In this document: piece by piece, positions 2,201 through 19,899 of the stretch
Layout: every line of letters begins with the position of its first letter
How positions within the stretch are numbered: the stretch's first letter is position 1
The notes under the pieces: generated by a model
The model's input: the letters and a program-made list of their open reading frames with translations, nothing else
The model's database searches: none
Told to the model about the DNA's origin: nothing
Assembly (NCBI GenBank): GCA_021372475.1
Contig: JAJFUJ010000162.1
Coordinates: 15,173-79,172 of the forward strand
Reading direction: 5' to 3'
Origin: Chloroflexota bacterium
Lineage (GTDB): Bacteria > Chloroflexota > Anaerolineae > UBA1429
Length of the DNA stretch: 64,000 nucleotides
Translations under genes and position numbers: made by a program

Positions 2201-3358
2201 ATGAAAATCAAGTCGATCGAGTGTTTTACCCATCAGCAGGCACCTCGCCAGTTATCAGGAGCCAGACGCCCGGCCTGGGTGGCTGACGCCGAAGTGGCCA
2301 ATCCAATGAGCAAATTCGCTGAATACAAACGTTACCGCTCTTCATGGCTGCCCACATGGCCCGGTTTTTGGGTCAAGGTGACTGCCGAGGATGGCACATA
2401 TGGGCTGGGACCATGTTCCTTTGGCCGCGCAACCGCAGCCATCATCCAGGATCATTTTGCCAAGTTGTTGGTCGGGCAGGAAGCCCTGGCTATCGAGCGC
2501 CTATGGGATATGATGTTCCGCATGTCCAAACCGTATGGCACTGTCGGCCTGGCTTCATCAGCTATCAGCGGCGTTGATCTGGCATTGTGGGACCTGGCAG
2601 GGAAAATCCAGAGCAAACCCGTTTATGAGCTGCTGGGCGGTAAAATGCGCGATAAGATCTTCACCTACGCCACCGGCAATGATGTTGACTGGTATATGGA
2701 GTGTGGATTCAAGGCCGTCAAGCTGGCTTGCCCATACGGGCCAAGCGATGGAGTTTGGGGCATCGACCAAAACGAAAAACTGGTCGCGGAAACACGTTCA
2801 CTCGTCGGCAATGACGTGGAGATAATGCTCGATTGCTATATGGCTTTCGATGTCGAATATACGGTGCGGCTCGCCGAGCGCCTGCGCCCGTACCGGTTAA
2901 AATGGATTGAGGAATTCTTGATTCCGGAGGACCTTGATGGACATGTCGCTGTACGCGAGCGTATCCCGTGGCAGACGCTGGCAACCGGCGAGCACATGTA
3001 CACTCCATGGCCGTTCCAATGGCTGATCAAGCATCGCGCGCTGGACATCCTGCAGCCAGATATGAATTGGGTGGGGGGCATCACAGCATGCCGGCGCATA
3101 GCCGAGATGGCCGATGTAGCCGGCCTGACGGTAATCCTGCACGGCGGCGCGATGTCACCCTATGGCACTCATTTGACCATCGCAATGCCCAATATGCCGT
3201 GGGGTGAGTATTTTGTCGGCACAGCTCCCGGCATTCCGCTGGCCGAGGGGCATAGTTACGACGGCTCACTGGCCCCGATAGATAGCTACGTCACCGTCAG
3301 CGATACCCCTGGCTTTGGCGTGGATATACCGAGCGAACAGCTCATTCCATTCAACTGA
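2201..3358 (+). CDS. rhmD: Enolase-superfamily sugar-acid dehydratase, L-rhamnonate dehydratase (RhamD/YfaW)-like
   Basis: Blocks matching E. coli YfaW: ANPMSKF, ISGVDLALWDLAGK, LKWIEE, DILQPDMNWVGG. GGAGG RBS at 2189-2193. Confidence 0.75.
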   Translation: MKIKSIECFTHQQAPRQLSGARRPAWVADAEVANPMSKFAEYKRYRSSWLPTWPGFWVKVTAEDGTYGLGPCSFGRATAAIIQDHFAKLLVGQEALAIERLWDMMFRMSKPYGTVGLASSAISGVDLALWDLAGKIQSKPVYELLGGKMRDKIFTYATGNDVDWYMECGFKAVKLACPYGPSDGVWGIDQNEKLVAETRSLVGNDVEIMLDCYMAFDVEYTVRLAERLRPYRLKWIEEFLIPEDLDGHVAVRERIPWQTLATGEHMYTPWPFQWLIKHRALDILQPDMNWVGGITACRRIAEMADVAGLTVILHGGAMSPYGTHLTIAMPNMPWGEYFVGTAPGIPLAEGHSYDGSLAPIDSYVTVSDTPGFGVDIPSEQLIPFN

Positions 3359-3384: not shown

Positions 3385-6093
3385 CTAGTGCGCTGCCCTG
3401 TCTATCAACGCCAAGATGCTGCTGCCGGCAATCGGCACGCAAACAGAAATGCCTGGTTCGATTGTATGCGGCGCATAATAGCGCCGAGTCAATTCATCGA
3501 CCAGCGCGTTTATCGCGCTTGCATGCGCTAATACCATCATACAGCCGCCTAATCCGGCGCCGGCCAACTGAGCGCCGGCAACCTGAGGGATGTTTCTGGC
3601 GATATCGACCATCCAATCTATCTCGCGCGTGCTGCAGCGGTAGGAGCCGGGTTGAAGCTCCAACCGGGCTCGCTCGCTGCGGAGCAGGTCACCCGACGCG
3701 CTATCATCAATGAGAGCCTGCAAATACGCATCGCTAATCGGCGCTTGATAGGGCGCCTCGGCGCCATCCTGCGTATGCGCGACCACCCGATCACCGTTAT
3801 GGGAGATCTTCATCAGTTCGCCAAATGACTGCACCTGCCCTGAGGCTAGCAGCTCAACCCCGTAGCGGCTGCGCTCACATTCTGCCAGGCCGAACAGTAC
3901 CACCCCGCGAACAGGCAGCGGATACGTTGAAGTGCCCAAGGCTGCCAAAACTGAAGCTAATTCAGAGGCAGGCAAAGAGTCGGCGAGTTCCTCCCGTGAG
4001 ATACTTATCGGCAGGGACAACAATATCTGGTACAGCGAGCTCAAGGGGATGCGCAGATTGCGGACATTGACATCGCGCAGGTGCTCTAATAACGGCGCAT
4101 ACTGTGGATAGTTATGCTTGATAAGCAGCAGGCCAGCTCGGTAACAAGCGATACGCTGGTTGAATATCTCGCGCGCTTCCTGCGATTTACGCGCCTGAAT
4201 CCGCGAATCGCACACTACTAGGTGATAGCCAGGCGGAAAGTCGACCAGCCGCTTGACGCCGAACGGAAAGAACGTGACCTGGGCTACTTTGCCGCGCTGA
4301 CCGTACTTGATTGCCGCATGGTCGGCGCTGCCGCCGCGCGTGCCAACGAACCATTCCCCTTCTCCGGCTAAATCAATAAATTGTTCGGGCTGGATATCAA
4401 GCCTATTGACTGCGCTCATCGCCTCAAGGGTTGCGACGACAAGCGCTGAAGAAGAAGAGAGCCCGGCAGCAATCGGGATATTCCCATGAACATACAAGTC
4501 CATTCCATTAAGGGCTCGGTCGCGATAGTGTTTCTGCAGCCGCAGCACTGCCGCTTTGACGTACTGGCTCCAGTCTCCGTGCGCCGACCGTGACATCTCG
4601 AGAACCGCTGGGCTGTTGACTAATGACATCCAGTCATCCCAAGGTAACAGACTGACAAGCTCAGCAATCGAAAACTGAGTTTCCTTAAACTCCCCGCCAT
4701 TTACATTATGTAGTGTTATGATGTCATCCCGGCGCGGATGCACCACCGCAAGTATTTCGCGGTCGATAGCCAGCAGATTGCAGATGCCGCCCTGATGGTC
4801 GATATGGCGTCCCAGGATGTTCGCACGACCGGGTGAACGTACAACAGCTACTTGCGGGTCGCCCGTTGAATGCCTCCAGCAAAAGTGCAGCAATTCGGTC
4901 AGAGCACGTCGGCGTTCGTTCAACAATAGCTGGTCGCTGCCGTAGGCATGCGTGAACTCATTGGCGAGGCTAGTTGACAACGAGCTATTAACTCCGGAGC
5001 GGCCAACAGGTGTGAGTGCATCCAACCAACGGGATACCGGCCAGAAGTGCTCAGTAGGTCGAGTGATGACCAGAGCAGCCTGCTTTTTTGCACGGTAATA
5101 TGCTTCGACGGCCAGTAATTCCGCGGGATTATTGTAGCCCAACACCCGGCGTGAGTCCTGCACATAAAGTGTCCGCACGCTCCGGCCAGCCTGGACTAGG
5201 ATGTTGACGACATCGGACAAGTATTCCTCATGCTGTGCGTTATCGGTACTCAGATGATCCAATGCATATTGTAAAGCAGAGGCTCTGAGCAGATATACTG
5301 AAACGTTAACCTGGGTAATTTGTGCTACCTGCTGCGGCGACATGCTCACATTGCCGGCATTAGCCGTTTTGAACATAAATGAATCAGGTTTGCCATCCAG
5401 CAGTTCGTTCCACTCCTGTCGGGATAATTCCTCCGCCGTTTGCAGCCTTGTCCACAGGTCATTGAAGGTAACTTGCACTTTATCGGCGGGGGTGTGTTCC
5501 TGCAGGAGAGCCGTGGCTTCAGCGCGGGTCGGCGGCTGCCCGGCGGCTAATTTTTGCCTCAGTGCTAAGTAAGCCTCACGCTGCCACACATCCCGCATCT
5601 CGACGACACCGAGTGTCTGTCCGGCGCCATTTACAACAACCCGCCCTTGTTCGGATTCCAGAGAGCGGGAGGTTGAGACAAATGCCAAATCGCAGGCACT
5701 CGCATAATACAGCTCGTAGAGCTGCTCCAATACCTGCTGCTCCACGATGCGATCGCCTGCTACTAGCAGCAGGTCGGCATCCCCATCCAGCAACACGCTA
5801 TCGAGCGCCCGCAGGCCGATGCGTGCAGCATCGCCAGTGCCGCGTTGTTCAGCCTGATAAGCATAGATGATGCCGGAATGTTCCTGAGCTATCGTTTGCA
5901 TAACCTGGCTGGCTAGTGCGCCAACAACGACAATCGGATAAGCGATGCCGGAAGCTCGATAGATTTCAATGACGCGGTTAATGACCGGCCGACCGTCAAC
6001 CAGGAAGCAGACTTTATGCTGGGTAGCTGAGCCCATACGCGTACCTTTGCCTGCGGCCAAGATCAGGACGTATCGAGGTTTTGTACAAGGCAT
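3385..6093 (-). CDS. Bifunctional sugar-1-phosphate nucleotidyltransferase / GHMP sugar kinase (Fkp-like L-fucokinase / NDP-sugar pyrophosphorylase architecture)
   Basis: N-terminal YVLILAAGKGTRMG nucleotidyltransferase motif. GHMP-kinase motifs PGRANILGRHIDHQGG, HGNIPIAAGLSSSSALVVA and GAGLGGCMMVLA. About 900 aa. Start placed at the internal ATG (MPCTK...), which has an AAGGGG RBS and avoids overlap with the upstream gene; the ORF-track start at 6186 is rejected. Confidence 0.7.
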   Translation of the reverse strand: MPCTKPRYVLILAAGKGTRMGSATQHKVCFLVDGRPVINRVIEIYRASGIAYPIVVVGALASQVMQTIAQEHSGIIYAYQAEQRGTGDAARIGLRALDSVLLDGDADLLLVAGDRIVEQQVLEQLYELYYASACDLAFVSTSRSLESEQGRVVVNGAGQTLGVVEMRDVWQREAYLALRQKLAAGQPPTRAEATALLQEHTPADKVQVTFNDLWTRLQTAEELSRQEWNELLDGKPDSFMFKTANAGNVSMSPQQVAQITQVNVSVYLLRASALQYALDHLSTDNAQHEEYLSDVVNILVQAGRSVRTLYVQDSRRVLGYNNPAELLAVEAYYRAKKQAALVITRPTEHFWPVSRWLDALTPVGRSGVNSSLSTSLANEFTHAYGSDQLLLNERRRALTELLHFCWRHSTGDPQVAVVRSPGRANILGRHIDHQGGICNLLAIDREILAVVHPRRDDIITLHNVNGGEFKETQFSIAELVSLLPWDDWMSLVNSPAVLEMSRSAHGDWSQYVKAAVLRLQKHYRDRALNGMDLYVHGNIPIAAGLSSSSALVVATLEAMSAVNRLDIQPEQFIDLAGEGEWFVGTRGGSADHAAIKYGQRGKVAQVTFFPFGVKRLVDFPPGYHLVVCDSRIQARKSQEAREIFNQRIACYRAGLLLIKHNYPQYAPLLEHLRDVNVRNLRIPLSSLYQILLSLPISISREELADSLPASELASVLAALGTSTYPLPVRGVVLFGLAECERSRYGVELLASGQVQSFGELMKISHNGDRVVAHTQDGAEAPYQAPISDAYLQALIDDSASGDLLRSERARLELQPGSYRCSTREIDWMVDIARNIPQVAGAQLAGAGLGGCMMVLAHASAINALVDELTRRYYAPHTIEPGISVCVPIAGSSILALIDRAAH

Positions 6094-6103
6094 AGGCGCC
6101 CCT

Positions 6104-7939
6104 TTATACTTCGAAGCGAATTTTGACGCCTTCCAACCGCAGGCGCTGCACCAGCTCAGCCGAAGTGCTGCACAGGAGCGCTTCATCGATCATGCGTCTG
6201 GATTTCTCGATCGACCAATCCTGGAGCAGCCTGGCGATGGGCTGAAGGCGATCTACTGCCACGCTGAGCTTGATGCCTAAACCGCTCAACAGCAGCGCCT
6301 CTGGCCATTGCCCTGCCAAGACCCCGCAGACAGTCACCGGTTTCCCGCCTGCCTGGGCCATGCTGGCTATCCTGGACATGCAACGCCAAAAGGCAGGCTG
6401 CAGCCCGATACGCCCATCGAGTGTTGAAGCGCTCTCGCGGCTTTGGGCGAACATGAGCGCACCCAGGTCATTGCTACCGATACTGATAAAATCAGCTTCA
6501 GCCACCATTTCATCCAGGCACCAGACCATCGCAGGCACTTCGAGCGAAATCCCGAGTGGGAGATTCACCCGCGTACTGAGATAGCTTTCCACTGCGCGCT
6601 GCTCTTCCCTCAGGTAACTGCGCGCTGCCCGCCATTCCTGGGTGGTTCGCACCAGAGGAAGTAATGCCTGCAAATCATGGCCGATGCTGGCCCGCAGTAA
6701 TGCTCTGAACTGCACCTGCAGCATCGCCGGATTCTTGAGGATGAACGCCAAACCTCGTTTGCTGACCTCATCGCTATATGGCATGCCGGGGGTCAGGTCC
6801 GCGAGCCGAATAGTTACCGGCCTTTTGCCGCTAGCCGCCAGCAGCCCGTCTAGCTGGCGCGTCTGTTCCCCTTCATCCAACGAACTCGAACCAATATAGA
6901 ACACCTCGCTGCGCACCAGGCCGATGCCCGCAGCGCCGGCTGCTATTGCTGCCTTGACCAGCTCGCTGCTGTCAGCATTCGCCAGCAATCCCAGATGTGT
7001 CGCCGAAGCTCCCAGCGTTGGGAGCGCCGAACTGCTCCTTGCCGAGATCGGTTCGATCACTGCCTCATCGCGGACAGTGCCTTCCTGGCCATCTACAACC
7101 AGGTTATCGCAGGCAGCCATCTCTTCGAGGTCCGCAGGCTTGAAGCCGCTAACCATCGGTATCCCGAGCCAGCGCGCAGCAATCGCGGTGTGAGATGACT
7201 CGCCGCCCTCACAAGTGATAACAGCACGAATCCAACGCGCCTGCGAACCGAGTAAATGGGCGAGCAGCACCCGGTATCCCATCAGCACAAGTCCCTTATG
7301 GGCGGCAGGTTCTGCTTGTACCTGGCGCATTGCCGCGAATAAGCGCTGGCTCAGGTCCGCCAGGATCTCAGCGCCGGGAGCATTCTCAGCCGCAGGGGAT
7401 AAGACTAGATCAGCGGTGAGTCGTTCATCTGCCAGGAGCTGCCGCTCTGCGCTGACCAGCTCGATCAGGTCACCCGCGCCAATCGCGTGTAGCATCTCTT
7501 CCTCTACGGCAAGCTCTTCATCAACCCTCGAGCGCGCCAAGCTCCAATCCGGGTTTGCCTCCGGCTCAGCAGCTCCAAGATTCGGCAGTTCTCCGCCGAT
7601 ATACTCACTCGGCCACCAGGGGGCTCCGCTACCTACGCCAGGCACCAAACCGTTCGCGTTCCAATGGCGCGCCTGCTGCTGTTCAGAGCCCAGGAGCAGG
7701 ACGATAGAATCCAGCACGGATTGCGGCGTGTCCTGCGCAGCGACCAATTCAACCGTATCGCCGCAAGCGAGCGCCAACTGCAGCAGCGCGAGGGGGCTGC
7801 TGGCATCGGCTGTGCCGCGCGAGCCCACTACCTGGAGCTGCGCCTGGGCTGCCCGGACGATACCCGCAAGGCGAACTGCGATACGCGCATGTACCCCCTG
7901 CGGCGCCCTAACCACCAATTTACGTCTGATTTCGCCCAT
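6104..7939 (-). CDS. ptsI: Multiphosphoryl transfer protein: HPr domain fused to PEP-protein phosphotransferase (Enzyme I)
   Basis: N-terminal HPr-like segment (KLVVRAPQGVHARIAVRLAGIV, with the active His in GVHAR). EI phospho-histidine region GGESSHTAIAARWLGIPMVSG. EI PEP-binding region SIGSNDLGALMF. Confidence 0.78.
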   Translation of the reverse strand: MGEIRRKLVVRAPQGVHARIAVRLAGIVRAAQAQLQVVGSRGTADASSPLALLQLALACGDTVELVAAQDTPQSVLDSIVLLLGSEQQQARHWNANGLVPGVGSGAPWWPSEYIGGELPNLGAAEPEANPDWSLARSRVDEELAVEEEMLHAIGAGDLIELVSAERQLLADERLTADLVLSPAAENAPGAEILADLSQRLFAAMRQVQAEPAAHKGLVLMGYRVLLAHLLGSQARWIRAVITCEGGESSHTAIAARWLGIPMVSGFKPADLEEMAACDNLVVDGQEGTVRDEAVIEPISARSSSALPTLGASATHLGLLANADSSELVKAAIAAGAAGIGLVRSEVFYIGSSSLDEGEQTRQLDGLLAASGKRPVTIRLADLTPGMPYSDEVSKRGLAFILKNPAMLQVQFRALLRASIGHDLQALLPLVRTTQEWRAARSYLREEQRAVESYLSTRVNLPLGISLEVPAMVWCLDEMVAEADFISIGSNDLGALMFAQSRESASTLDGRIGLQPAFWRCMSRIASMAQAGGKPVTVCGVLAGQWPEALLLSGLGIKLSVAVDRLQPIARLLQDWSIEKSRRMIDEALLCSTSAELVQRLRLEGVKIRFEV

Positions 7940-9622
7940 CTAGATGACTCCTGTGAAGCCGGCAATGAAACCAACTACCGATATCCCCAGCACAACCCAA
8001 GTGGGCTTAATGCGGTGTTTGAGTACCCACAAACATAGCAGGCACATCCCCAGCACGAGCGCTTGCGGCACAAGCGCATCCAGGATACCCTGCAGGGGCA
8101 CCACTTGGCTGCCCAGGTTCAGGGTCACCAGCAGGTTCAGGGGAACCGCCCGCGCTAGCAGAACGCCCAACATCACACTGCCGACCAACTCCAGGCTTGC
8201 GAGCCACTGCTGCCAAGCTCCTGATGCGATGCGCCGCTGAATCAATGACCGGCTACCCCGGTAACCTGCCATGTAACTCAACGCACCTACTCCCCAAATG
8301 CTGATAGCCACCATCAGGGTGTAGATAACCGGCCCCAGTAAACCAACCTGGCGAGTCAATCCAATCCCTAGCATCAGAGCGAGTGGGATCCAGGTCCCCT
8401 GGATAAGCGAATCGCCGATGCCAGAGATCGCTCCCATCAACCCTATTTTGATAGCATTGACTGTATTGTAGTTTGGTTCGGCTTCGCAAGCTTGTTTCTC
8501 CTCCATAGCTGCGACCGTACCGATAACAAAGGCCCCTAGGTTAGGCTCGCTATTGAAGTAAGTAATATGCCTATTAAGAGCTTCTGCTCGTTCCCTTTGG
8601 TTAGGGTATAGACGGTTGATAATCGGGATCATGCTATGAGCAAAACCCAAACCCTGCATACGTTCATAGTTATAACTGGCATGCGAAAAGAACAGCCAAT
8701 TGAGCCATGAGACGGCCAGATCCCTTCGCTTCAACTTACGCGGGAGATACGGGGCATTGGCATCCGTTTCAGGAGCTGCCGTCTGAGCCGTAGGCTGCAC
8801 GAGCCAGGCGATGCACGCTGCTGCAAGCGCCAGAGCCAACAAAGGCCAATCGGTCAACGCCGCAACCAAAAAGCCAAGGATGAACCAGGCGCCATTACGC
8901 CCGTGCCACAACAGAGTCAGGCTATAAGCTAGGCCCACTATGGGCAATACAGCGCCCGCACCGGAGAGACCTTTAAGCAGCCAGGACGGAATCTGCGCCA
9001 GGTTCTGGCTGAGCCAGGCAGGTCCCCAATAGACGGCGGCTGCGCAAGGTAGCAGGCTGATCAATACAAGCAGCGCCTGCGGCGCGAGCACATTGCACCA
9101 TACCCAGGCTTTGGTGTTACCCTGGCTCGCCAGATATTCAGCCCACCTGACGAAAACAACATCCAGCGACATACGCAGTTGATAAATGAGGTATCCCAGA
9201 ATACCGACCGGTACAGTCAGAGCCAGGGCGGCCTCAGCATCCAGGCCACCACCCAGCGCCAACGCCGTGCCGAGGTATCCGGCCAACGAGATATCGCTGG
9301 GAAGCGAACCGCCGGCAGCAACAAAACCGAGATAAGCCAGGTTTATCGTTGCGCCGATCTGCGCGCCTTCCAACGGCGCTCCCAAAATAAGCCCGACTAA
9401 TGTGCCGCCAACCAATGGCCGGTACAACGTAAAAAAGCCAATGCCCGCAACCCAAGCGCTCTGCGACAGGTAATAACACAGGCCAATAAGGAAAGCCGCC
9501 AACAAACTAATCGGGCGGGTTGGCGTTGCGTCGGCAGCATGGCTGAGCAAACCCGGGGCGGCAAGCGATACGCCGCCAAGCAGGGCCAGCCAGGCCGCTA
9601 CCCAGCGGAATCTGGGCGCCAT
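7940..9622 (-). CDS. PTS mannose/sorbose-family EIIC-EIID fusion permease
   Basis: N-terminal half resembles ManY (RPLVGGTLVGLILGA). C-terminal half resembles ManZ (SYNYERMQGLGFAHSMIPIINRLYP, GLMGAISGIGDSLIQGTW, WVVLGISVVGFIAGF). The start is uncertain: the ATG at 9622 overlaps the IIB stop by 25 nt, and the ORF-track start at 9754 is probably too far upstream. Confidence 0.75.
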   Translation of the reverse strand: MAPRFRWVAAWLALLGGVSLAAPGLLSHAADATPTRPISLLAAFLIGLCYYLSQSAWVAGIGFFTLYRPLVGGTLVGLILGAPLEGAQIGATINLAYLGFVAAGGSLPSDISLAGYLGTALALGGGLDAEAALALTVPVGILGYLIYQLRMSLDVVFVRWAEYLASQGNTKAWVWCNVLAPQALLVLISLLPCAAAVYWGPAWLSQNLAQIPSWLLKGLSGAGAVLPIVGLAYSLTLLWHGRNGAWFILGFLVAALTDWPLLALALAAACIAWLVQPTAQTAAPETDANAPYLPRKLKRRDLAVSWLNWLFFSHASYNYERMQGLGFAHSMIPIINRLYPNQRERAEALNRHITYFNSEPNLGAFVIGTVAAMEEKQACEAEPNYNTVNAIKIGLMGAISGIGDSLIQGTWIPLALMLGIGLTRQVGLLGPVIYTLMVAISIWGVGALSYMAGYRGSRSLIQRRIASGAWQQWLASLELVGSVMLGVLLARAVPLNLLVTLNLGSQVVPLQGILDALVPQALVLGMCLLCLWVLKHRIKPTWVVLGISVVGFIAGFTGVI

Positions 9623-10089
9623 ACTAGCGGCAGGTCGTGGTAGCGTGCCTGAATTATGATATTTAAACCGCATGCCGTGAGCGATCGCAGCACCTCCTTT
9701 TCTGAAGGCGACAGGTACACCTGAGCGGAGACGCGTTGGCGTCCGGTGCGCCATCCCAGGGCACCAAGCATAACCACCTCTGGATTATAGCCGGCACTCA
9801 GCAATAGCTGCAGCTCTTCCAGGCTCGGAAGCAGCACCAATACGGCGTTCTCGTCGCTGCGCTGCCACAAGTATTCCGCCGCGTCCCGCGCATTGCCTAT
9901 CCATAATTGATAGCGTTCAGCCAGAGCCGAACGCACAAGCGCCCTTTGGCCGTCATCCAGCGACTCGTGGACGACCATCACGCACACCGGATCGAGATAG
10001 CGCAGCCAGTCGAAAATCACTTGGCCGTGAACAAGACGGTCATCCACACGCACCAATACCCGACCAGCAGGCGACATGATATTCCTCAA
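9598..10089 (-). CDS. PTS mannose/sorbose-family EIIB
   Basis: VLVRVDDRLVHGQVIFDW matches the IIB(Man/Sor) IDDRLIHGQV phospho-histidine motif. 163 aa. Confidence 0.75.
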   Translation of the reverse strand: MRNIMSPAGRVLVRVDDRLVHGQVIFDWLRYLDPVCVMVVHESLDDGQRALVRSALAERYQLWIGNARDAAEYLWQRSDENAVLVLLPSLEELQLLLSAGYNPEVVMLGALGWRTGRQRVSAQVYLSPSEKEVLRSLTACGLNIIIQARYHDLPLVWRPDSAG

Positions 10090-10536
10090 CTAGCGGATGC
10101 CTTCCGGCAAGAGGTGGATATCATGCACTGCCGCCTGCAGAACGCGCCTGGCTAAAACATCCAACGACTCGGTTCGTGCTGAACTCACGCATGCCTCCAA
10201 GACCATTGCCAGGTTCATACCGCTCAATACGACAGCTCTATCTTTCCAGGGCGGGACACCGGCTATCTGCGAGGCAATCTGCCAGGGAGTCCCACCATAT
10301 ATATCGGTTAGCACAAGAAATGAAGCCTGCGGACCCAAAGCTCGCATCGTCTCAAGGAGCCGATCGTATAAATAGCTCGGATTATCCGCTCCATCCAAAT
10401 CGAACGCCTGCAGTAGTTGGCCAGATCCCACTATTACCTCCGCAGCACACTTATATGCTGCCGCCAGGCCGGAATGGGCAACCAGGATTATATGAAACAA
10501 GATTTTGTTCTCCACATAAATCAGCCAGCCCAACAC
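10090..10536 (-). CDS. PTS mannose-family EIIA
   Basis: ILFHIILVAHSGLAAAYKCAAEVIVG...LTDIYGGTPWQIASQI resembles the ManX IIA domain (GTHGWAAE...DTWGGSPFN). The ORF extends to 10689, but the first roughly 55 codons are low-complexity with no homology, so the true start is probably an internal GTG/TTG near 10515-10536. Confidence 0.65.
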   Translation of the reverse strand: MLGWLIYVENKILFHIILVAHSGLAAAYKCAAEVIVGSGQLLQAFDLDGADNPSYLYDRLLETMRALGPQASFLVLTDIYGGTPWQIASQIAGVPPWKDRAVVLSGMNLAMVLEACVSSARTESLDVLARRVLQAAVHDIHLLPEGIR

Positions 10537-10759
10537 GATAGGAGCTCCCCTTGGCCGCGGAGATGCTTCCCTTGCATCTGTCGCCCCATCCCTTTCAGGA
10601 GCTACGTCGTCGATATCAAGCAAGGGCGCGCCAGGGGATATATGGAAATGCAGCCACCCATCTACAGAGCATCCATCCCTTTCAGCCATTCCCTATGGTT
10701 ATTCTAGCATCAGGTAGTTGGTATGGCAACGCTTCGTTATGCATTTAGGGCGTGGATGT

Positions 10760-10853: not shown

Positions 10854-12188
10854 ATGATGCCATTTGTAATTGAAGGGGGACATCCGCTGAGCGGGTATGT
10901 GGATGTTGAAGGTGCTAAGAACGCTGCATTACCTATTATAGCTGCTACTTTGCTCACCGCTGACGAGTGCTTGCTGGAGAATGTGCCTTTCATCGAGGAT
11001 ATTCGGACTATGCTCAAGGTGCTGCACCACCTGGGGGTGGCTGCTCGTTTCGAGGGCCCCAATACGCTGCGCATAAAGGCAACCCGCATCTCCAAGGCCT
11101 ATTTGCCGGCCGATTTAGCTAAAGCGATGCGTGCCAGTTTCCTGGTTGTCGGCCCGCTGCTCAGCCGCTTTGGCCAGGCCGAAGCGCCGCATCCGGGCGG
11201 CTGCAGCATCGGCATCAGACCTGTCAGCGTGGACTTGCAGGGATTTCAGCATATGGGCGCTGAAATCAATATGTCGGATGTCAACTATGTCATTCGGGCG
11301 CCCGGGCTGCATGGCGAGCGCTTAATACTGGATTATCCCAGCCATACCGGTACCGAGAACGTCATTATGGCCGCTTGTTTGGCCGAGGGCACCACAGTTA
11401 TAGAGAATGCCTCCATCGAACCCGAAGTTGCAGACCTGATTTCCTTTTTATGCGCGATGGGGGCGCGTATCTCTGGCGCCGGCACCAGTACGCTGCACAT
11501 CGAAGGCACTGGACGTCTGCACGGCGCTTGCTTCAGGGTGATGCCCGACCGTATGGTAGCTGGCACTTATATACTTGGTGCGCTTGTCTCCGGCGGTGAT
11601 GTGGCAATGAGCGGTGTTGTCGCGCCGTATCTTGGGGCGCTATCGAACAAGCTGCAGGAAGCTGGCGCCGAGGTTTACATCAGCCAGAACGAATATCGCG
11701 TGCGCTATGTACAGCCGCTGCGGGCGGTAGATATACAGACCTACCCGTACCCTGGATTTCCAACGGATTTGCAGGCCCCTTTCACCACCGTGATGACTCA
11801 GGCGGAGGGCGATAGCTCTACCGCCGAAATGATGTTCGACGGACGGCTTCAATACGTGGACCAGCTCAAGCGTATGGGCGCAGCTATCGATATACTCGAT
11901 AACGGCCGCCGTGCTATAGTACACGGCCCTACAAGGCTCAAAGGAGCTGAAGTGCAGGCACTGGATATCCGTTCCGGAGCGGCCATGGTGATGGCCGCAC
12001 TGGCCGCCGAGGGTCAAACCACGATAAGCAATGTCACCTATATTGACCGAGGGTACCAAGATATAGACAAGCATCTCACCAGCCTAGGCGCGGTTATTTC
12101 CCGCAGCGCTGAAGAAGAACACTGCTGCCCTCCTAGCGATTCGAGCGAACCTGTTGAATGGTCCGCAATAAGTGAACTCAAAAACTAG
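10854..12188 (+). CDS. murA: UDP-N-acetylglucosamine 1-carboxyvinyltransferase
   Basis: EPSP-synthase fold start MMPFVIEGGHPLSGYVDVEGAKNAALPIIAA. Catalytic Cys context GGCSIGIRPV. AGGTGGG RBS. Confidence 0.9.
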   Translation: MMPFVIEGGHPLSGYVDVEGAKNAALPIIAATLLTADECLLENVPFIEDIRTMLKVLHHLGVAARFEGPNTLRIKATRISKAYLPADLAKAMRASFLVVGPLLSRFGQAEAPHPGGCSIGIRPVSVDLQGFQHMGAEINMSDVNYVIRAPGLHGERLILDYPSHTGTENVIMAACLAEGTTVIENASIEPEVADLISFLCAMGARISGAGTSTLHIEGTGRLHGACFRVMPDRMVAGTYILGALVSGGDVAMSGVVAPYLGALSNKLQEAGAEVYISQNEYRVRYVQPLRAVDIQTYPYPGFPTDLQAPFTTVMTQAEGDSSTAEMMFDGRLQYVDQLKRMGAAIDILDNGRRAIVHGPTRLKGAEVQALDIRSGAAMVMAALAAEGQTTISNVTYIDRGYQDIDKHLTSLGAVISRSAEEEHCCPPSDSSEPVEWSAISELKN

Positions 12189-12213
12189 ACTGCCCACGGG
12201 CTAACCGGCTCCT

Positions 12214-12244
12214 AGCCATCAATTGTGTACTGATGGCTTTTATG
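12214..12244 (+). terminator. Rho-independent terminator after murA (AGCCATCA-loop-TGATGGCT + TTTTAT)
   Basis: 8-bp inverted repeat followed by a T-run, 25 nt past the murA stop. Confidence 0.5.
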
Positions 12245-12281
12245 TTATGATTGCGTCCGATAAAAGGTTCGAGGAGGACCG

Positions 12282-13283
12282 ATGTTTGAAAAGCAGATAG
12301 GCATCGACCTCGGCACAGTCAATGTGCTGGTTTATGTGCGCGGCAAAGGCGTTGTGCTCAATGAGCCTTCTGTCGTCGCTATTTCACAGGTCGATAATCG
12401 GATCCTAGCGATTGGAAACGAAGCGCGCGCAATGCTGGGGCGCACGCCAGATACGATTGAGGTTGCCCGCCCCATGCGCAACGGCGTGATTGCCGATTAC
12501 GTCGTGACCGAGGCGATGTTGCGCTACTTTATCGGTAAAGTATGCAACCATTTTGAACGGCGCCCTGAGATTATGATCAGTGTGCCAGTCGGGGTCACCA
12601 GCGTAGAGAGCCGCGCCGTCAGAGATGCGGCTATTCAAGCAGGCGCTCGCATCGCTCATCTCATCCCTGAGCCGTTAGCTGCAGCTTTAGGCGCGAATAT
12701 GCCGATCGGCACGCCGACGGGCAATATGATTGTTAATATCGGCGGCGGTGCATCAGAGGCAGCAGTGATATCGATGTACGGTATCGTAGTATCCAACTCG
12801 GTGCGTGTAGCCGGTGAAAAGCTGGATGATGCTATCGCTGCATATATTCGTCGTAAGTACAATTTGATGATTGGCGAGAGCACGGCGGAACAAATCAAGA
12901 TAGAGATTGGTTCCGCCATTCCGCTTGATGAGGAAATGCGCCTGGAAGTGCGTGGCCGCGATCAGGTCGCCGGCTTACCCCGCACTATTACCATCACTTC
13001 TACTGAAGTGAGCGACGCGCTCTCCGAGCCGCTTGGCGTCATTGCCGCTACGGTTCGTACGGTACTGGAGAAGACTCCGCCCGAGCTTTCTTCCGACATC
13101 ATCGACCGCGGGATGGTCATTGTGGGGGGCGGGGCGCTGCTGCGTAATATCGACCGCTTCTTTACGCGCGAGACGGGTGTGCCCTGCCACGTTGCTGAAA
13201 AGCCGATGCTGTGCACGGCCCTGGGAGCTGGGCGCGGCTTGGAGTATCTACCGCTCATCCGCCGAGCAGTGGAGTCTACCTGA
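12282..13283 (+). CDS. mreB: Rod shape-determining actin homolog MreB
   Basis: [34 protein letters not shown] is the canonical MreB N-terminus. GGAGG RBS 5 nt upstream. Confidence 0.92.
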
Positions 13284-15504: not shown

Positions 15505-17217
15505 ATGAGCGAATGGGTAATCACCACGAACAGGGCGCGCTGCCGAGATTGTTATCGCTGCGTGCGCATCTGCCCTGTCAAGGCCGTGCGCGTCGAAAAC
15601 GGCCAGGCGCAGATTGTGCCGGAGTTATGTGTGGCTTGCGGAAGCTGTGTGCGGGAATGCCCTCAGGGCGCCAAAGTGGTTCGAGATGACCGAGCATTAG
15701 TGCGTCAGGCAATCAAGTCCGGCCGGCCGGTATATGCTACCGTTGCTCCTTCTGCGCCGGCATATTTTGGCATCAAGGAGTTCGACCAACTGCACGGGGC
15801 GCTTGAACAATTGGGATTCACTGACGCCTTTGAGACCGCATTTGGCGCGCAGATGGTTGCTCCGGCGCACCGCGAATTTGTAGAGCACGACCGGAATAAG
15901 TGGCCTATCGTCGCTTCCGCCTGCCCGGTAGTGGTGAACCTTTTCGAGCGCTATTATCCAGACTTGCTTGCCCACCTGGCGCCGATTGTTTCGCCGATGA
16001 TTGCCCACGGCCGGTACCTGCGCAACAAGTACGGCCCCGAAGCGCTGATTGTCTTCATTGGGCCATGCATTGCAAAAAAAGAGGAGCTGCGCGATCCTGA
16101 GGTTGCCGGCGCGGTAGATGCTGCCCTTACCTTCAACGAGTTGGAAGAGTGGCTCGGGCAGGATAATGTCGCGCTACCAGAGCCTTCCGCAGAATTGGCC
16201 GATGCGCCACAAGCCAATGCGCGCCTTTTCCCCGTGGAAGGCGGTTTGGTCGGCACAGCCAGGATGAACACGGATATGCTCTCCAGCCAGATAATTGCCA
16301 CGTCAGGGATGGATGCCTGCCGTGATGTATTGGACAGTATTCGTTCCGGCGAGTTGACGGTGTGTATGGCTGAGTTAATGGCTTGCGACGGCGGATGCAT
16401 TAACGGGCCGGTTATGTCGGCCAAGAGCGGTCCGAGCCTGGCGCGCCAAAAGGTGATGGCTTATGCTGGGAAGCGCCAGACACAGCCGCTGCCCTCTCCC
16501 GAAGAGCGCCCCAATCTGGAAAGGAAATACAACGACCACAACATCAAGATGCCGGATTTCGCGGAAGAGCGCATCCGTGAAGTGATGCGGCTGGTCGACA
16601 AGTACACGCCCGAAGACGAACTCAACTGTGGCGCTTGTGGTTATGCGACTTGCCGCGACAAGGCGATCGCTACTTTGCGCGGTATGGCCGAAAGCACGAT
16701 GTGCATCCCCTATATGCGCCGGCGGGCGGATTCGCTCCGCCAACTTGTTATGGATGTAACGCCGAATGCTATCATCATTGTCGACAAAAACCTACGTATC
16801 CTGGACATGTCCCCTTCTGCGCAGCGCATGTTTGAGCGCAGCCTCAATTCCGTCCAGGGGCAGCCGATCAATATGGTTATTCCGTTGGCCAATAGCTTTG
16901 AGCGCGTTCACGAAACTGGCATCGCGGTGATGAACGAACTGCTGCGCATTAATGACAACCTGGTTGTCGAGCAATCCGTTGTGCCTGTAACTTTCCAGAA
17001 CATGCTTATGGCGATTCTGCGCGATGTGACCGAACGCGAGGTGCAGCAGGCCGAGTTGACCCACATCCGCACAGAAACCCTGACGCGTACCCAGGAGGTG
17101 ATTGCCAACCAGATGCGCGTTGCACAGGAAATTGCCCAACTCCTCGGCGAAACGACCGCTGAAACCAAGATGGCCCTAACAAGGCTGGCCAAGCTGATTG
17201 AGAACGGCGAATCCTGA
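15505..17217 (+). CDS. Sensory [FeFe]-hydrogenase-like protein (HydS/HfsB type): 2x[4Fe-4S] N-domain, H-cluster domain, Cx2Cx4Cx16C motif, C-terminal PAS domain
   Basis: CRDCYRCVRICP and CVACGSCVRECP ferredoxin motifs. H-cluster motifs L1 ASACP (variant of TSCCP), L2 GPCIAKKEE, L3 ELMACDGGCINGP. Exact CGACGYATC-x16-C motif. PAS-like segment (VTPNAIIIVDKNLRILDMSP...). AGGTGG RBS. Confidence 0.8.
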   Translation: MSEWVITTNRARCRDCYRCVRICPVKAVRVENGQAQIVPELCVACGSCVRECPQGAKVVRDDRALVRQAIKSGRPVYATVAPSAPAYFGIKEFDQLHGALEQLGFTDAFETAFGAQMVAPAHREFVEHDRNKWPIVASACPVVVNLFERYYPDLLAHLAPIVSPMIAHGRYLRNKYGPEALIVFIGPCIAKKEELRDPEVAGAVDAALTFNELEEWLGQDNVALPEPSAELADAPQANARLFPVEGGLVGTARMNTDMLSSQIIATSGMDACRDVLDSIRSGELTVCMAELMACDGGCINGPVMSAKSGPSLARQKVMAYAGKRQTQPLPSPEERPNLERKYNDHNIKMPDFAEERIREVMRLVDKYTPEDELNCGACGYATCRDKAIATLRGMAESTMCIPYMRRRADSLRQLVMDVTPNAIIIVDKNLRILDMSPSAQRMFERSLNSVQGQPINMVIPLANSFERVHETGIAVMNELLRINDNLVVEQSVVPVTFQNMLMAILRDVTEREVQQAELTHIRTETLTRTQEVIANQMRVAQEIAQLLGETTAETKMALTRLAKLIENGES

Positions 17218-17230
17218 GGAGTATTGAACT

Positions 17231-18406
17231 ATGCGTCAGGTCGTTGAGGTAACCTCCGAGAGCCTCTCAAAATACGGCGAGGAGCTGTGCGGCGATACCG
17301 TCAAAATCAATACTACGGATACTTACCTTACCGTGGTTCTGTCGGATGGGTTAGGCAGCGGTGTCAAGGCAAATATCCTCTCTACCCTCACCGCGCAGAT
17401 TGCCGGCTCGATGTTCGAACAAGGTGCTGAAATCCAAGATGTGATGCAGACGCTGGTCGATACCCTGCCAGAGTGCCAGGTGCGCAAGCTGGCGTACGCG
17501 ACCTTCGCTATGGTAAAAGTTTACCGCGGCCATGAAGTTTACCTGGTTGAATACGACAGCCCTCCGCTCATCCTGGTGCGCAACAATGAAATTATCCAAG
17601 TCGATACCAAGGAAAGGGTTGTCAGCGGGCGCAAACTGCGCGAGGCTAAATTCGAGGTATATGACAAAGATTATATGGTGCTTGTCAGCGACGGCTACGA
17701 GCACGCCGGTGTAGGCGGAATATATCGCCTCGGTTGGGGGTGGCAAAACATAGCCATCGCGGTCAAACGTTGGGCGCAGACCGGCTGCGACGCGTATAGC
17801 CTGACGCAAGCCCTCAAGCGCACCTGTACCAAGCTCTATGACGGCAAGCCAGGGGATGACGCGACAGCAGTAGGAATGCGCGTGCGGCCAGCCATCGTTG
17901 TCACCATCCTGACCGGACCGCCGGCAGATAAAAACAATGACGAGCTAATCGTGCGCAAGCTGATGGAAAGCCCTGGGCAGAAAGTGATTTGCGGCGGCAC
18001 CACAGCACAAATGGCCGCCCGAGTACTTGGCAAAGAACTCAAGGTAGACTGGGTGCCGCCTAACCAGCGCGTCTCGTCCAATTCGCGCCGCAAACATACA
18101 CCGCCTACTGCCCGGTTGGAAGGAGTTGACCTTGTCACCGAAGGTATCCTGACCCTCGGTCAGACGGTCGAATTGCTGGAAAAGGCACACGACATCCACG
18201 AGCTGCCTACCGATGAAGATGCGTCAACCCGGCTGGCTCGCATTTTGTTGAGTGCTGACGTCATCACGCTTGTCGTAGGCACTGCGGTCAATCCCAACCA
18301 GGTTGCGGATGTCATCCGCGGCGAGCCGATGCGGATGATCTATGTCCGCCAGCTCCAGCAAATCCTCGCACCCACTACCAAGAAGGTTAACCTTATCAGC
18401 ATCTAG
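17231..18406 (+). CDS. SpoIIE/PP2C-family serine phosphatase (HfsC-like partner of the sensory hydrogenase)
   Basis: PPM-type metal-binding motif VVLSDGLGSGVKANI. 14-nt gap after the hydS-like gene, same strand. The C-terminal roughly 170 aa has an unassigned fold. Confidence 0.65.
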   Translation: MRQVVEVTSESLSKYGEELCGDTVKINTTDTYLTVVLSDGLGSGVKANILSTLTAQIAGSMFEQGAEIQDVMQTLVDTLPECQVRKLAYATFAMVKVYRGHEVYLVEYDSPPLILVRNNEIIQVDTKERVVSGRKLREAKFEVYDKDYMVLVSDGYEHAGVGGIYRLGWGWQNIAIAVKRWAQTGCDAYSLTQALKRTCTKLYDGKPGDDATAVGMRVRPAIVVTILTGPPADKNNDELIVRKLMESPGQKVICGGTTAQMAARVLGKELKVDWVPPNQRVSSNSRRKHTPPTARLEGVDLVTEGILTLGQTVELLEKAHDIHELPTDEDASTRLARILLSADVITLVVGTAVNPNQVADVIRGEPMRMIYVRQLQQILAPTTKKVNLISI

Positions 18407-18411
18407 CTGTG

Positions 18412-19899
18412 CTAAGATTGCGTTAAGCCCAGGCGCACATATTGCTCAGGCGGCGCATCGTTAGCGCGCATCTCAGCAACCAACATATCAATCATCCGGC
18501 TCTCCAAGCGCGCGTCCTTCAGCGGGCGCTCCTGAAGCGGGTCATCAGCCAGGTCATATAGATAGGTACCGAACTGTTTCCCTGCGTTCAAGCCAGCTCT
18601 GGCAGGGATGCGCATGGTATGGCATCCTTTAGTAAAGGAAAAGGGCTCCGCCAGGGAGACGCCGTTAAACTCTTCTACGCTGAACATCCCCGTCATATGG
18701 GTAGGCATCAGGGTATATTCATACAGAGGGGTATTCTCGGGCGTAGCATTGGCCCGCATATAGACGTATCGCCCGTCGGTAACGTTCACATGCGCGCCGT
18801 GCAACCCAAATAGTCCGGCTTCCCGCACCGGCGTATCGTCGGCAATGGTTGCCCGCAGCGGATTCCCTTGCATATCGGCGGGTAAAGGAACACCAAAATA
18901 CGCTAGCAGAGTTGCCGGCAGATCGATCGTCTGTACCAGGGATTTACGGCGTTCGCCGCGCGCACCACAGCGCGGATCCCAGATGAATAACGGGGTATGC
19001 GCCACCTCGTCCCAAAAAGGCTGGACAACCTTGGCCCACCAATCGTGTTCGCCCAGCAGAAACCCGTGGTCTGTGTTCACGATGAGCAGCGTATCCTTCC
19101 ATAGATCCAATTCATCCATCACATCCATCAGGCGCCCCAGGTACCAATCGCACATACTGTGCAGGGCAGCGCTCATACAGCGCATATGCTGCACCTCGTC
19201 AGGATTTTCGACCACGCGGGCGTAATTCGGCCAATCAAAGTGCTGGCCGTGATACGCATGCGGGTAAAGGTCTTGGAAGCGCTGCGAGCTAAAATAGGGT
19301 TCGTGCGGGTCAAAAGTCTCGATAGTCAAGAACCAGTCGTCCTGGGCATGGTTCATCCGCAGGAAGTCAATGCCGGCTTGAAACGTGCGCGGCTGCGGCA
19401 TCTGTTCCTCGTTGGCCGTATGCAGCCGGTTGACCCAATCCTGCCGCAGCCTGGCGGTTGGTCGGGGATTGTTCAGGAACTGGGGCAAATCGATTGGTCT
19501 CAGGTCAGGTATCCAGGCATCACCCTCCTGGCCACGGAAACTCTCCCAGGTGCTGTAGCGATTGTGATAGGTGCAGCCGCCGTCCTCCCAATAATGGTAA
19601 TGGTCGCTGGCAAGGTGGCTGGTAATACCATGTTTTTTTAGGATTTCGGGTAACGAGTCATCGAAGGGCTCCAGGGGGCCCCAACTGCGGTGTAGAAAGT
19701 TGTAACGGCCGGTATGCAGCTCGCGCCTGGCGGGCATGCACGGCATCGAACCGACATATGCGGTATCAAAGGTCACGGCATGTTCCGCCAACCGCGTAAA
19801 GTTCGGCGTCATCACCCAGCGATAAGCGCCAGGCTCGTGCTGATAGGGGCTGAGCATACGCCGGTTAAGCGAATCATACATCAGCATGATAGCCCGCAT
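18412..19899 (-). CDS. Sulfatase-family hydrolase (Cys-type, formylglycine-dependent)
   Basis: Sulfatase signature C-M-P-A-R (SMPCMPARRELHTGRY) and the general alkaline-phosphatase-superfamily fold. Confidence 0.75.
   Translation of the reverse strand: MRAIMLMYDSLNRRMLSPYQHEPGAYRWVMTPNFTRLAEHAVTFDTAYVGSMPCMPARRELHTGRYNFLHRSWGPLEPFDDSLPEILKKHGITSHLASDHYHYWEDGGCTYHNRYSTWESFRGQEGDAWIPDLRPIDLPQFLNNPRPTARLRQDWVNRLHTANEEQMPQPRTFQAGIDFLRMNHAQDDWFLTIETFDPHEPYFSSQRFQDLYPHAYHGQHFDWPNYARVVENPDEVQHMRCMSAALHSMCDWYLGRLMDVMDELDLWKDTLLIVNTDHGFLLGEHDWWAKVVQPFWDEVAHTPLFIWDPRCGARGERRKSLVQTIDLPATLLAYFGVPLPADMQGNPLRATIADDTPVREAGLFGLHGAHVNVTDGRYVYMRANATPENTPLYEYTLMPTHMTGMFSVEEFNGVSLAEPFSFTKGCHTMRIPARAGLNAGKQFGTYLYDLADDPLQERPLKDARLESRMIDMLVAEMRANDAPPEQYVRLGLTQS

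Follow-up and report, generated by a model that had tools for sequence, protein, structure and literature searches.

The window analysed here is a 64,000-nucleotide (nt) stretch of a Chloroflexota bacterium contig (JAJFUJ010000162.1, positions 15,173 to 79,172), and our subject is a gene at 3385..6093 that encodes a nucleotidyltransferase domain fused to a GHMP kinase domain, called the fusion gene below. The original prediction had these coordinates right and left the strand unstated. Reading-frame analysis of the window places the gene on the minus strand, with 902 codons and a stop; the plus-strand translation of the same interval is riddled with stops. The mechanical open reading frame extends to 6186 and would give 933 amino acids. 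We regard the ATG at 6093..6091 as the credible start, giving a product of 902 amino acids, because the TAA of the upstream gene lies at 6106..6104 and a Shine-Dalgarno-like AAGGGG (6099..6104, minus strand, read from 6104 to 6099) stands 5 nt ahead of the ATG, overlapping that stop codon. An NCBI entry 100% identical to the product (P0001) is named 'NTP transferase domain-containing protein [Chloroflexi bacterium]' and comes from a metagenome-assembled contig.

The fusion gene is the final cistron of a minus-strand operon encoding a complete mannose-family phosphotransferase system (PTS). Separated from it by a 10-nt gap is the gene for an HPr-Enzyme I fusion (6104..7939), recognized by Pfam and NCBIfam and carrying the phospho-His motifs GVHARIA and GGESSHTAI; the N-terminal, HPr-binding Pfam domain of Enzyme I was undetected in residues 84-235 of this protein. 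Further upstream on the same strand lie a fused IIC-IID permease (7940..9754; Pfam EII-Sor and EIID-AGA), whose reading frame overlaps the next gene, so that its start is uncertain and probably lies downstream of the listed one, and a sorbose/mannose-type IIB (9598..10089) with the phospho-His motif DDRLVHGQV. The last member is a mannose-type IIA (10090..10689), in which the domain begins at residue 67; 10689 is probably too far upstream to be its true start, and the orthologue in a related Anaerolineae locus (L003) has 130 amino acids. All four phospho-His motifs are present in the window PTS. The closest specific NCBIfam models of its parts are Aga models for N-acetylgalactosamine (GalNAc) and galactosamine (GalN), namely AgaW/AgaE and GalN IIC/IID for the permease and AgaF for IIA, all of them matched under cut-off. 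Predicted promoters and terminators were no more numerous in the operon than in shuffled sequence. Locus L003, whose fusion protein is 60% identical to that of the window, shows the same PTS arrangement with a convergent MR_MLE gene and a divergent MurA-MreB pair.

Five Pfam families were found in the fusion protein, all over their curated cut-offs and far beyond chance. NTP_transf_3 (E 5.9e-13) and NTP_transferase (E 7.7e-09) cover residues 9-163, the galactokinase galactose-binding signature GalKase_gal_bdg covers residues 411-453 (E 3.4e-11, 43.0 bits), and GHMP_kinases_N (residues 511-598; E 1.1e-17, 64.4 bits) and GHMP_kinases_C (residues 797-873; E 5.8e-09, 36.7 bits) complete the kinase. 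The four motifs first quoted for this protein were all located: the pyrophosphorylase loop LILAAGKGTRMG at residues 10-21, and GHMP motifs I to III as PGRANILGRHIDHQGG (residues 421-436, the GalK signature), HGNIPIAAGLSSSSALVVA (residues 536-554) and GAGLGGCMMVLA (residues 845-856, motif III). The product is a two-domain protein, an N-terminal sugar-1-phosphate nucleotidyltransferase followed by a C-terminal anomeric-sugar GHMP kinase, in the order of Fkp/FKGP and of similar size, as had been proposed. The kinase module is C-terminal as stated, but it makes up 55-59% of the chain (residues 370/411-902) and not two-thirds.

The nucleotidyltransferase domain has a GlmU-like fold in two parts, residues 1-168 (5590..6093, minus strand) and residues 258-340 (5074..5322, minus strand). 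GlmU accounted for 17 of the 18 PDB matches to residues 1-340 at E<=0.01 (best 4.6e-19), the other being a weak match to the nucleotidyl transferase 4y7t (E 0.004); the PDB sequence search gave no significant similarity to GalU/RmlA-type enzymes. GlmU aligns to the query in separate blocks, at residues 6-173 and 257-330. The top NCBIfam matches were likewise GlmU models, aligned by their first approximately 170 positions and a second stretch, which is the uridyltransferase part only.

Active-site residues were compared through a residue map to E. coli GlmU, with a reference sequence that is of the expected length (456 amino acids), has the expected residue at 15 of 15 literature positions and covers the same GlmU ranges as the PDB alignments. 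Thirteen of the 15 checked positions are identical in the fusion protein, and none of the 13 varies among 30 diverse members of the family, the set to which invariance refers throughout. G14, R18, K25, Q76, G81, T82, D105, G140 and E154 of GlmU correspond to G15, R19, K27, Q80, G85, T86, D114, G150 and E165 in the first part of the fold. In the second part, N169, E195, Y197 and N227 correspond to N263, E289, Y291 and N321, the middle two lying in an NAQxEEYL motif (residues 285-292). We presume that these residues have the roles of their GlmU counterparts, with Q76 and G81 taken to be the uracil contacts. Because these contacts are kept, UTP rather than GTP would be the likely nucleotide of the transferase domain.

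Between the two parts of the fold lies a family-specific insertion of approximately 85 amino acids (residues 169-257; 5323..5589, minus strand), seen in the split GlmU alignment and in the AlphaFold model, where it forms four helices and a beta-hairpin. It falls between E154 and N169 of GlmU (E. coli numbering), inside the uridyltransferase fold, and its W214, F239 and F241 are invariant. The model of the whole protein (mean predicted local distance difference test, pLDDT, 84.4; predicted template modelling score, pTM, 0.64) shows an alpha/beta fold up to about residue 340, helices next and then the kinase. It has no beta-helix domain after the nucleotidyltransferase fold and no run of short beta-strands. 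From pLDDT and secondary structure, a linker was delimited at residues 341-410 (4864..5073, minus strand), which is of low confidence over 340-368 and then forms two helices at 370-408. These helices accompany the kinase in its stand-alone relatives, whose alignment begins at about residue 375.

The kinase domain (residues 411-902; 3388..4863, minus strand) was placed in the galactokinase clade of GHMP kinases by Pfam, phmmer, profile and Foldseek searches alike. Its features are the GalK signature at 421-436, the phosphate-binding loop GLSSSSA at 544-550, Asp591 in GTRGGSADH and motif III at 845-856. The closest solved kinase is the human GalNAc kinase GALK2 (phmmer 3.4e-26; Foldseek 1.3e-24 with a target TM-score of 0.81); with the family profile it scored 3.6e-42 and 147 bits, approximately 50 bits over the yeast, Lactococcus and Pyrococcus galactokinases. 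PDB kinase matches were galactokinase-clade throughout, with the entry 'AbGHMP' (9ulx) as a distant match, and mevalonate and homoserine kinases were much weaker (E 1e-5 or worse by phmmer against the PDB). The C-terminal domain therefore groups with the anomeric sugar kinases, that is galactokinase and GalNAc kinase, as the original prediction had supposed. No variation is seen in Arg423 of the PGR motif, Asp432 of HxD, the GLSSSS loop or Asp591, and the catalytic pair R423 (PGR) and D591 (GxxD) aligns to GALK2.

The protein had been thought uncommon in bacteria, which does not hold for the family: relatives are encoded in the genomes of at least 548 species. The architecture recurs in more than 500 proteins of approximately 900 amino acids, and 457 clusters (50% identity) score E<=1e-30. 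Carriers belong to the Chloroflexota, Spirochaetota (Spirochaetaceae), Lentisphaerota/Victivallales, Verrucomicrobiota, Planctomycetota and scattered others, and the cultured ones include Oligosphaera ethanolica, Victivallis vadensis, Singulisphaera and Blastopirellula. Database names are generic or an automatic 'N-acetylgalactosamine kinase'. Variants of approximately 800 amino acids are without the insertion, variants of 1000-1300 amino acids have additional N-terminal regions, and the stand-alone kinase relatives have 520-560 amino acids. Two kinase relatives of 1307-1314 amino acids (P0212 and P0245) carry N-terminal regions of approximately 790 amino acids with no Pfam match, that is, alternative fusion partners. 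One assembly, GCA_040960625.1, holds two fusion paralogues in unrelated contexts (P0012 and P0062, at loci L004 and L088; 54% and 50% identical to the window protein), and there could be two sugar specificities within the family.

A split form is found in Armatimonadia, where a gene for a GlmU-like protein of 345 amino acids runs into the start of a kinase gene of 557 codons. The GlmU-like protein is 31% identical to the N-terminal half of the fusion protein, insertion included. This arrangement, with the two genes adjacent and overlapping, supports a joint function of the two halves.

The likeness to Fkp that had been noted holds as an analogy in domain order and size and does not extend to kinship beyond the superfamily level. 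The shared traits are an N-terminal pyrophosphorylase, a C-terminal GHMP kinase, a length of approximately 900-1050 amino acids and a two-step salvage logic. The Pfam Fucokinase family PF07959 gave no match in the fusion protein at E<=0.1. No Fkp chain was among the 57 PDB sequence matches (phmmer) at E<=1, among the best 60 of 90 PDB profile matches at E<=10, even though the weaker relative MurU appears there, or among the top 50 Foldseek matches. Fkp itself has 949 amino acids, uses GTP and has a left-handed beta-helix in its N-terminal half (PMC11982464). That half combines a PF07959-type fold with the beta-helix, whereas the fusion protein is GlmU-type with uracil contacts kept. Our analyses indicate that the fusion protein is not an Fkp homologue.

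Compared by published architecture, the zebrafish enzyme DrGKUP is a closer precedent. This glucuronokinase and putative UDP-glucuronate pyrophosphorylase of 619 amino acids joins an N-terminal bacterial-type nucleotidyltransferase to a C-terminal GHMP glucuronokinase and uses ATP and then UTP to make a UDP-sugar from the free sugar (PMC3938481). Its kinase is of the plant glucuronokinase lineage, in contrast to the galactokinase/GALK2 clade of the fusion protein, and its pyrophosphorylase domain of approximately 260 amino acids is not described as GlmU-like, whereas the fusion family has approximately 900 amino acids and the 85-amino-acid insertion. For residues 1-340, GlmU predominates among the significant solved relatives; the fusion protein lacks its acetyltransferase beta-helix domain and has the insertion. 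The same chemistry as we propose below is known from N-acetylhexosamine (HexNAc) salvage by GALK2 with AGX1/UAP1, Bifidobacterium NahK with GlmU and Pseudomonas AmgK with MurU/GlmU, but on these routes each activity has a protein of its own. Neither NahK nor AmgK is a GHMP kinase, and AmgK has a different fold.

Neighbouring genes were examined at 163 non-redundant loci obtained from genome and metagenome scans. A codon-usage model, for which the target gene served as training set, was used to call the neighbours; these were then grouped into clusters and identified by searches of Pfam, NCBIfam and the PDB. Extended short-chain dehydrogenase/reductase (SDR) nucleotide-sugar enzymes occur at 16 loci, 11 of them on the same strand within 110 nt. 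The SDR cluster looked uniformly 'TviC-like' at first but is a mix of WbpP-like, UXS, RmlB and Gmd enzymes, so we gave up the simpler view in which the fusion gene is regularly followed by an epimerase. WbpP/WbgU-like UDP-HexNAc 4-epimerases (3.1e-101 to WbpP) are found at six loci and at the split locus, true UDP-glucuronate decarboxylases (UXS; 3.3e-118 to human UXS1) at five closely related loci, a true dTDP-glucose 4,6-dehydratase at one Singulisphaera locus and a true GDP-mannose 4,6-dehydratase after the fusion gene at one Planctomycetota locus. NagA-like deacetylases occur at eight loci (five same-strand within 370 nt), and their ten best PDB matches are all N-acetylglucosamine (GlcNAc) 6-phosphate deacetylase.

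Among the Spirochaetes, a PIG-L deacetylase and an Amidohydro_2 protein are found at 6-7 loci, four of which have a GlcNAc-2-epimerase-family gene and 2-3 an ATP-binding cassette (ABC) importer, and an HD phosphohydrolase lies 30-866 nt downstream at four Spirochaete loci. GH20 hexosaminidases occur at two loci, GFO/IDH/MocA oxidoreductases at 13 and major facilitator superfamily (MFS) transporters at six. An archaeal long form adjoins NAGPA and YdjC, and an 822-amino-acid form sits in a Wzx/Wzy/Wzz/sulfotransferase polysaccharide locus. Taken together, the neighbours show a tie of the fusion gene to nucleotide-sugar metabolism and lean to N-acetylhexosamines, with a minority signal for UDP-glucuronate.

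Three further arrangements were recorded. At three Chloroflexi-type loci, a 301-amino-acid protein is translationally coupled to the fusion gene, its start overlapping the fusion gene stop, and at L005 (12733-13638) and L077 (1605-2516) GH20 comes next; the protein gave no Pfam, NCBIfam or PDB match. The coupled downstream gene in Kiritimatiellia (L002 12740-13840) encodes a 'GSU2086 family' protein. In Lentisphaeria (L094, on the contig of L039, 549-7753), a GntR/FCD regulator, a pilin-like N_methyl protein, a sialidase-like BNR_2 protein and the fusion gene are followed, 4 nt downstream, by a UDP-glucuronate decarboxylase, and the row looks like an inducible glycoside-to-UDP-sugar module.

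We propose that the fusion protein works in two steps. The C-terminal galactokinase-type domain would transfer phosphate from ATP to the anomeric C1 hydroxyl of the sugar, with Arg423 and Asp591 as the catalytic pair, and the N-terminal GlmU-type domain would then transfer UMP from UTP onto the sugar-1-phosphate, giving UDP-sugar and pyrophosphate. The sugar would most likely be GlcNAc and/or GalNAc and the product UDP-GlcNAc or UDP-GalNAc, sidestepping the NagA-GlmM-GlmU route. We infer the chemistry of the two steps, the use of UTP and the identity of the sugar from the domains, invariant catalytic residues and split-gene form that were observed. That the protein combines an anomeric kinase with a uridylyltransferase and makes a UDP-sugar is highly probable. 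The fuller reading, a single-chain salvage of free N-acetylhexosamine to the UDP-sugar, is the likeliest of those considered but is held tentatively; as originally cautioned, sugar specificity cannot be read with certainty from the sequence.

Several observations weigh against N-acetylhexosamine salvage. The galactokinases and GALK2 have the motif G-E-H-x-D-Y (GEHIDY in GALK2), whereas the family has G-R-H-x-D-H-[QR]-G-G, with Glu replaced by the invariant R429 and Tyr by His; in a census of fused and stand-alone relatives, the three variable positions read R/H/Q in 162 of 248 matched sequences and R/H/R in 71 (233/248 together). Around the catalytic Asp the family signature is G-[TS]-R-G-G-x-x-D-H, which places a second invariant arginine, Arg586, beside it. 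In the transferase, Y103 of GlmU is replaced by Ala112 and V106 by Arg115, the latter nearly invariant in the family, and these changes may reflect a sugar that carries another kind of group, possibly an anionic one. We take it that the Glu and Tyr of GEHxDY bind the sugar, that the Glu contacts the C6 hydroxyl and that plant galacturonic acid (GalA) kinase has Ala there. As both residues are replaced, the sugar pocket of the fusion kinase should differ from that of galactokinase, and because the sugar-binding Glu has become an invariant Arg, an acidic or 6-phosphorylated sugar is possible. Arg429 and Arg586, together with Arg115, are the chief unexplained feature of the family, and because of them the acidic-substrate readings stay open.

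Scores and context add to the case on that side. The protein falls far under all NCBIfam galactokinase and GlmU equivalog cut-offs (120.8 against 443 and 114.2 against 226.65 for galactokinase; 76-135 bits against 367-725 for GlmU, the best being 135 against 611). The first and second neighbours comprise 151 and 167 Pfam families, with nothing in common among most loci; the fusion gene mostly stands alone, the evidence from context is thin, and each association is largely within one lineage. A UXS gene directly following the fusion gene, as at five loci, suits UDP-glucuronate more than UDP-HexNAc. A PTS yields sugar 6-phosphates, whereas an anomeric kinase normally uses the free sugar; one possibility is that the PTS link is merely regulatory, others that free HexNAc is formed inside the cell or that the kinase accepts the 6-phosphate. 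No experimental study or enzymology of any family member was found in the literature.

The alternative that survives best, unlikely but to be taken seriously, is that the sugar is a uronic acid, glucuronic acid (GlcA) or GalA, and that the protein is a glucuronokinase/UDP-glucuronate pyrophosphorylase, a bacterial analogue of DrGKUP feeding decarboxylases and epimerases. That such an enzyme exists is shown by DrGKUP (PMC3938481). At four Lentisphaeria/Victivallales-type loci the strand of the fusion gene carries a true UXS orthologue 4-63 nt further downstream, and at a fifth the distance is 615 nt; UXS-like SDRs occur in two further phyla. The UXS linkage comes, however, from what is in essence one lineage, the UXS proteins being 70-80% identical to each other. 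The exchange of Glu for Arg429, Arg586 beside the catalytic Asp and Arg115 at V106 of GlmU would suit an acidic sugar, but both domains are nearest to HexNAc enzymes (GALK2 and GlmU), and the GlmU residues kept include GlcNAc-holding ones. Neighbours of the sugar-acid type are MR_MLE dehydratases (first neighbour at 6 of approximately 83 loci, Planctomycetota included), KduI (two), the UDP-glucose dehydrogenase family (two) and the GntR-FCD regulator, and the MR_MLE adjacency hints at a sugar-acid link. The HexNAc-specific neighbours (NagA-like at eight loci, WbpP-like at 6-7, PIG-L at six and GH20 at two) are more numerous and more widely spread than the uronate-specific ones.

Quite unlikely is a reading suggested by the operon itself, in which the substrate is a HexNAc 6-phosphate delivered by the PTS (or by a 6-kinase elsewhere) and converted to HexNAc-1,6-bisphosphate and then to UDP-HexNAc-6-phosphate, or uridylylated after removal of the 6-phosphate. 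The PTS product would reach a nucleotide sugar without a mutase, comparable to the HddA-GmhB-HddC logic of GDP-heptose, with Arg429, Arg586 and Arg115 as 6-phosphate binders. The fusion gene does end a complete PTS operon, an arrangement kept in the 60%-identical relative, but a PTS is found at just these two of the 163 loci, and elsewhere ABC or MFS transporters point to free sugar. NagA-like enzymes, which act on HexNAc-6-phosphate, are the second commonest specific neighbour, and the HD-domain phosphohydrolase of the four Spirochaete loci would also fit; the window operon has no phosphatase gene. There is an Arg in the transferase (Arg115) and another where the Glu presumed to bind the C6 hydroxyl would stand, their positions relative to C6 being presumed from sequence. 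We know of no described metabolism of UDP-HexNAc-6-phosphate, which counts against the reading. A GHMP kinase precedent for C1 phosphorylation of a sugar phosphate is HddA/WcbL (PMC4691232).

Salvage of a neutral hexose, with galactose or glucose converted to UDP-galactose or UDP-glucose (or to a dTDP-sugar) by a single fused protein in place of GalK and GalT of the Leloir pathway, is improbable. The galactokinase signature and the galactokinase-clade PDB matches agree with it, a dTDP-glucose 4,6-dehydratase adjoins the fusion gene in Singulisphaera, and Gln/Gly nucleobase contacts would suit dTTP as well as UTP. Against this, both the Glu and the Tyr of GEHxDY are altered, NCBIfam galactokinase scores reach at most approximately half of the cut-offs, and the significant similarity of the transferase is to GlmU only and not to GalU/RmlA-type enzymes.

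There is very little to recommend a GHMP/GlmU-type substitute for AmgK-MurU, which would convert N-acetylmuramic acid (MurNAc) to UDP-MurNAc and bypass MurA/MurB. The anionic lactyl substituent could account for the extra arginines, both the window and L003 have a divergent MurA gene beside the operon, and a Ddl or Mur-ligase-family gene is near the fusion gene at two other loci. MurU (8hhd) nonetheless barely matches the family profile (E 0.016), the kinase is of the GHMP type, unlike AmgK, and GlmU E154 and N169, which we take to be the O3/O4 contacts of GlcNAc, are invariant and hard to square with a 3-O-lactyl group; no recurrent cell-wall recycling neighbour was found at the 163 loci.

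That the protein is a true Fkp/FKGP orthologue, an L-fucokinase/GDP-L-fucose pyrophosphorylase, is scarcely credible: the domain order, the length similar to the 949 amino acids of Fkp (PMC11982464) and the GDP-mannose 4,6-dehydratase at one Planctomycetota locus are outweighed by the lack of PF07959, of any PDB retrieval of Fkp by sequence or profile and of a beta-helix, and by the kept GlmU uracil-type contacts and a kinase with the GalK signature.

Other genes of the window were also annotated. The MR_MLE (enolase superfamily) gene at 2201-3358 on the plus strand is convergent with the fusion gene, with 26 nt between the stops, and its closest NCBIfam model is L-rhamnonate dehydratase (294 against a cut-off of 393 bits). 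Its identity as a murein-peptide epimerase was considered and rejected; it is sugar-acid-dehydratase-like and gives no support for cell-wall recycling. MurA (over its NCBIfam cut-off) and MreB are encoded at 10854-13283 on the plus strand, divergent upstream of the PTS operon. Approximately 12 kb from the fusion gene, at 18412-19899 on the minus strand, lies a sulfatase gene with an SGSH_C (N-sulphoglucosamine sulphohydrolase C-terminal) domain, and its presence may reflect the use of sulfated amino-sugar glycans. At 15505-18406 on the plus strand, a gene for a protein that resembles the large subunit of [FeFe]-hydrogenase and has Fe-S and PAS domains, as in sensory hydrogenases, directly precedes one for a SpoIIE/PP2C-type phosphatase, and the two look like a hydrogen-sensing signalling pair. 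A protein of 389 amino acids (21685-22854, plus strand) is a short PurH-like one, its match to the Pfam AICARFT/IMPCHase model being confined to model positions 76-311.

The fusion family belongs, as a variant that was assembled independently, to the known bifunctional salvage enzymes in which a sugar-1-kinase is joined to a pyrophosphorylase. Natural single-chain enzymes that turn a sugar into a nucleotide sugar are few, and artificial kinase-uridyltransferase fusions are being built for glycan synthesis; where such engineered galactokinase-uridyltransferase fusions were described in 2024, the fucose and glucuronate enzymes are the only natural ones named (PMC11267548). The family would be a third type beside Fkp/FKGP and the fish glucuronate enzyme, probably UDP-specific and probably for N-acetylhexosamines, and it occurs in hundreds of species of glycan-degrading phyla. 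The Glu-to-Arg change and the PTS linkage leave room, as a small chance, for a less ordinary substrate. If that substrate were a HexNAc 6-phosphate, which we consider improbable, a PTS product could become a nucleotide sugar without the help of a mutase, perhaps by way of the hitherto undescribed UDP-HexNAc-6-phosphate. If instead the salvage of free N-acetylhexosamine is the true function, the family would provide bacterial amino-sugar metabolism with a direct shortcut from HexNAc to UDP-HexNAc, the generic or "GalNAc kinase" annotations of its members could be corrected, and a one-enzyme catalyst would be at hand for UDP-GlcNAc, UDP-GalNAc and their analogues.

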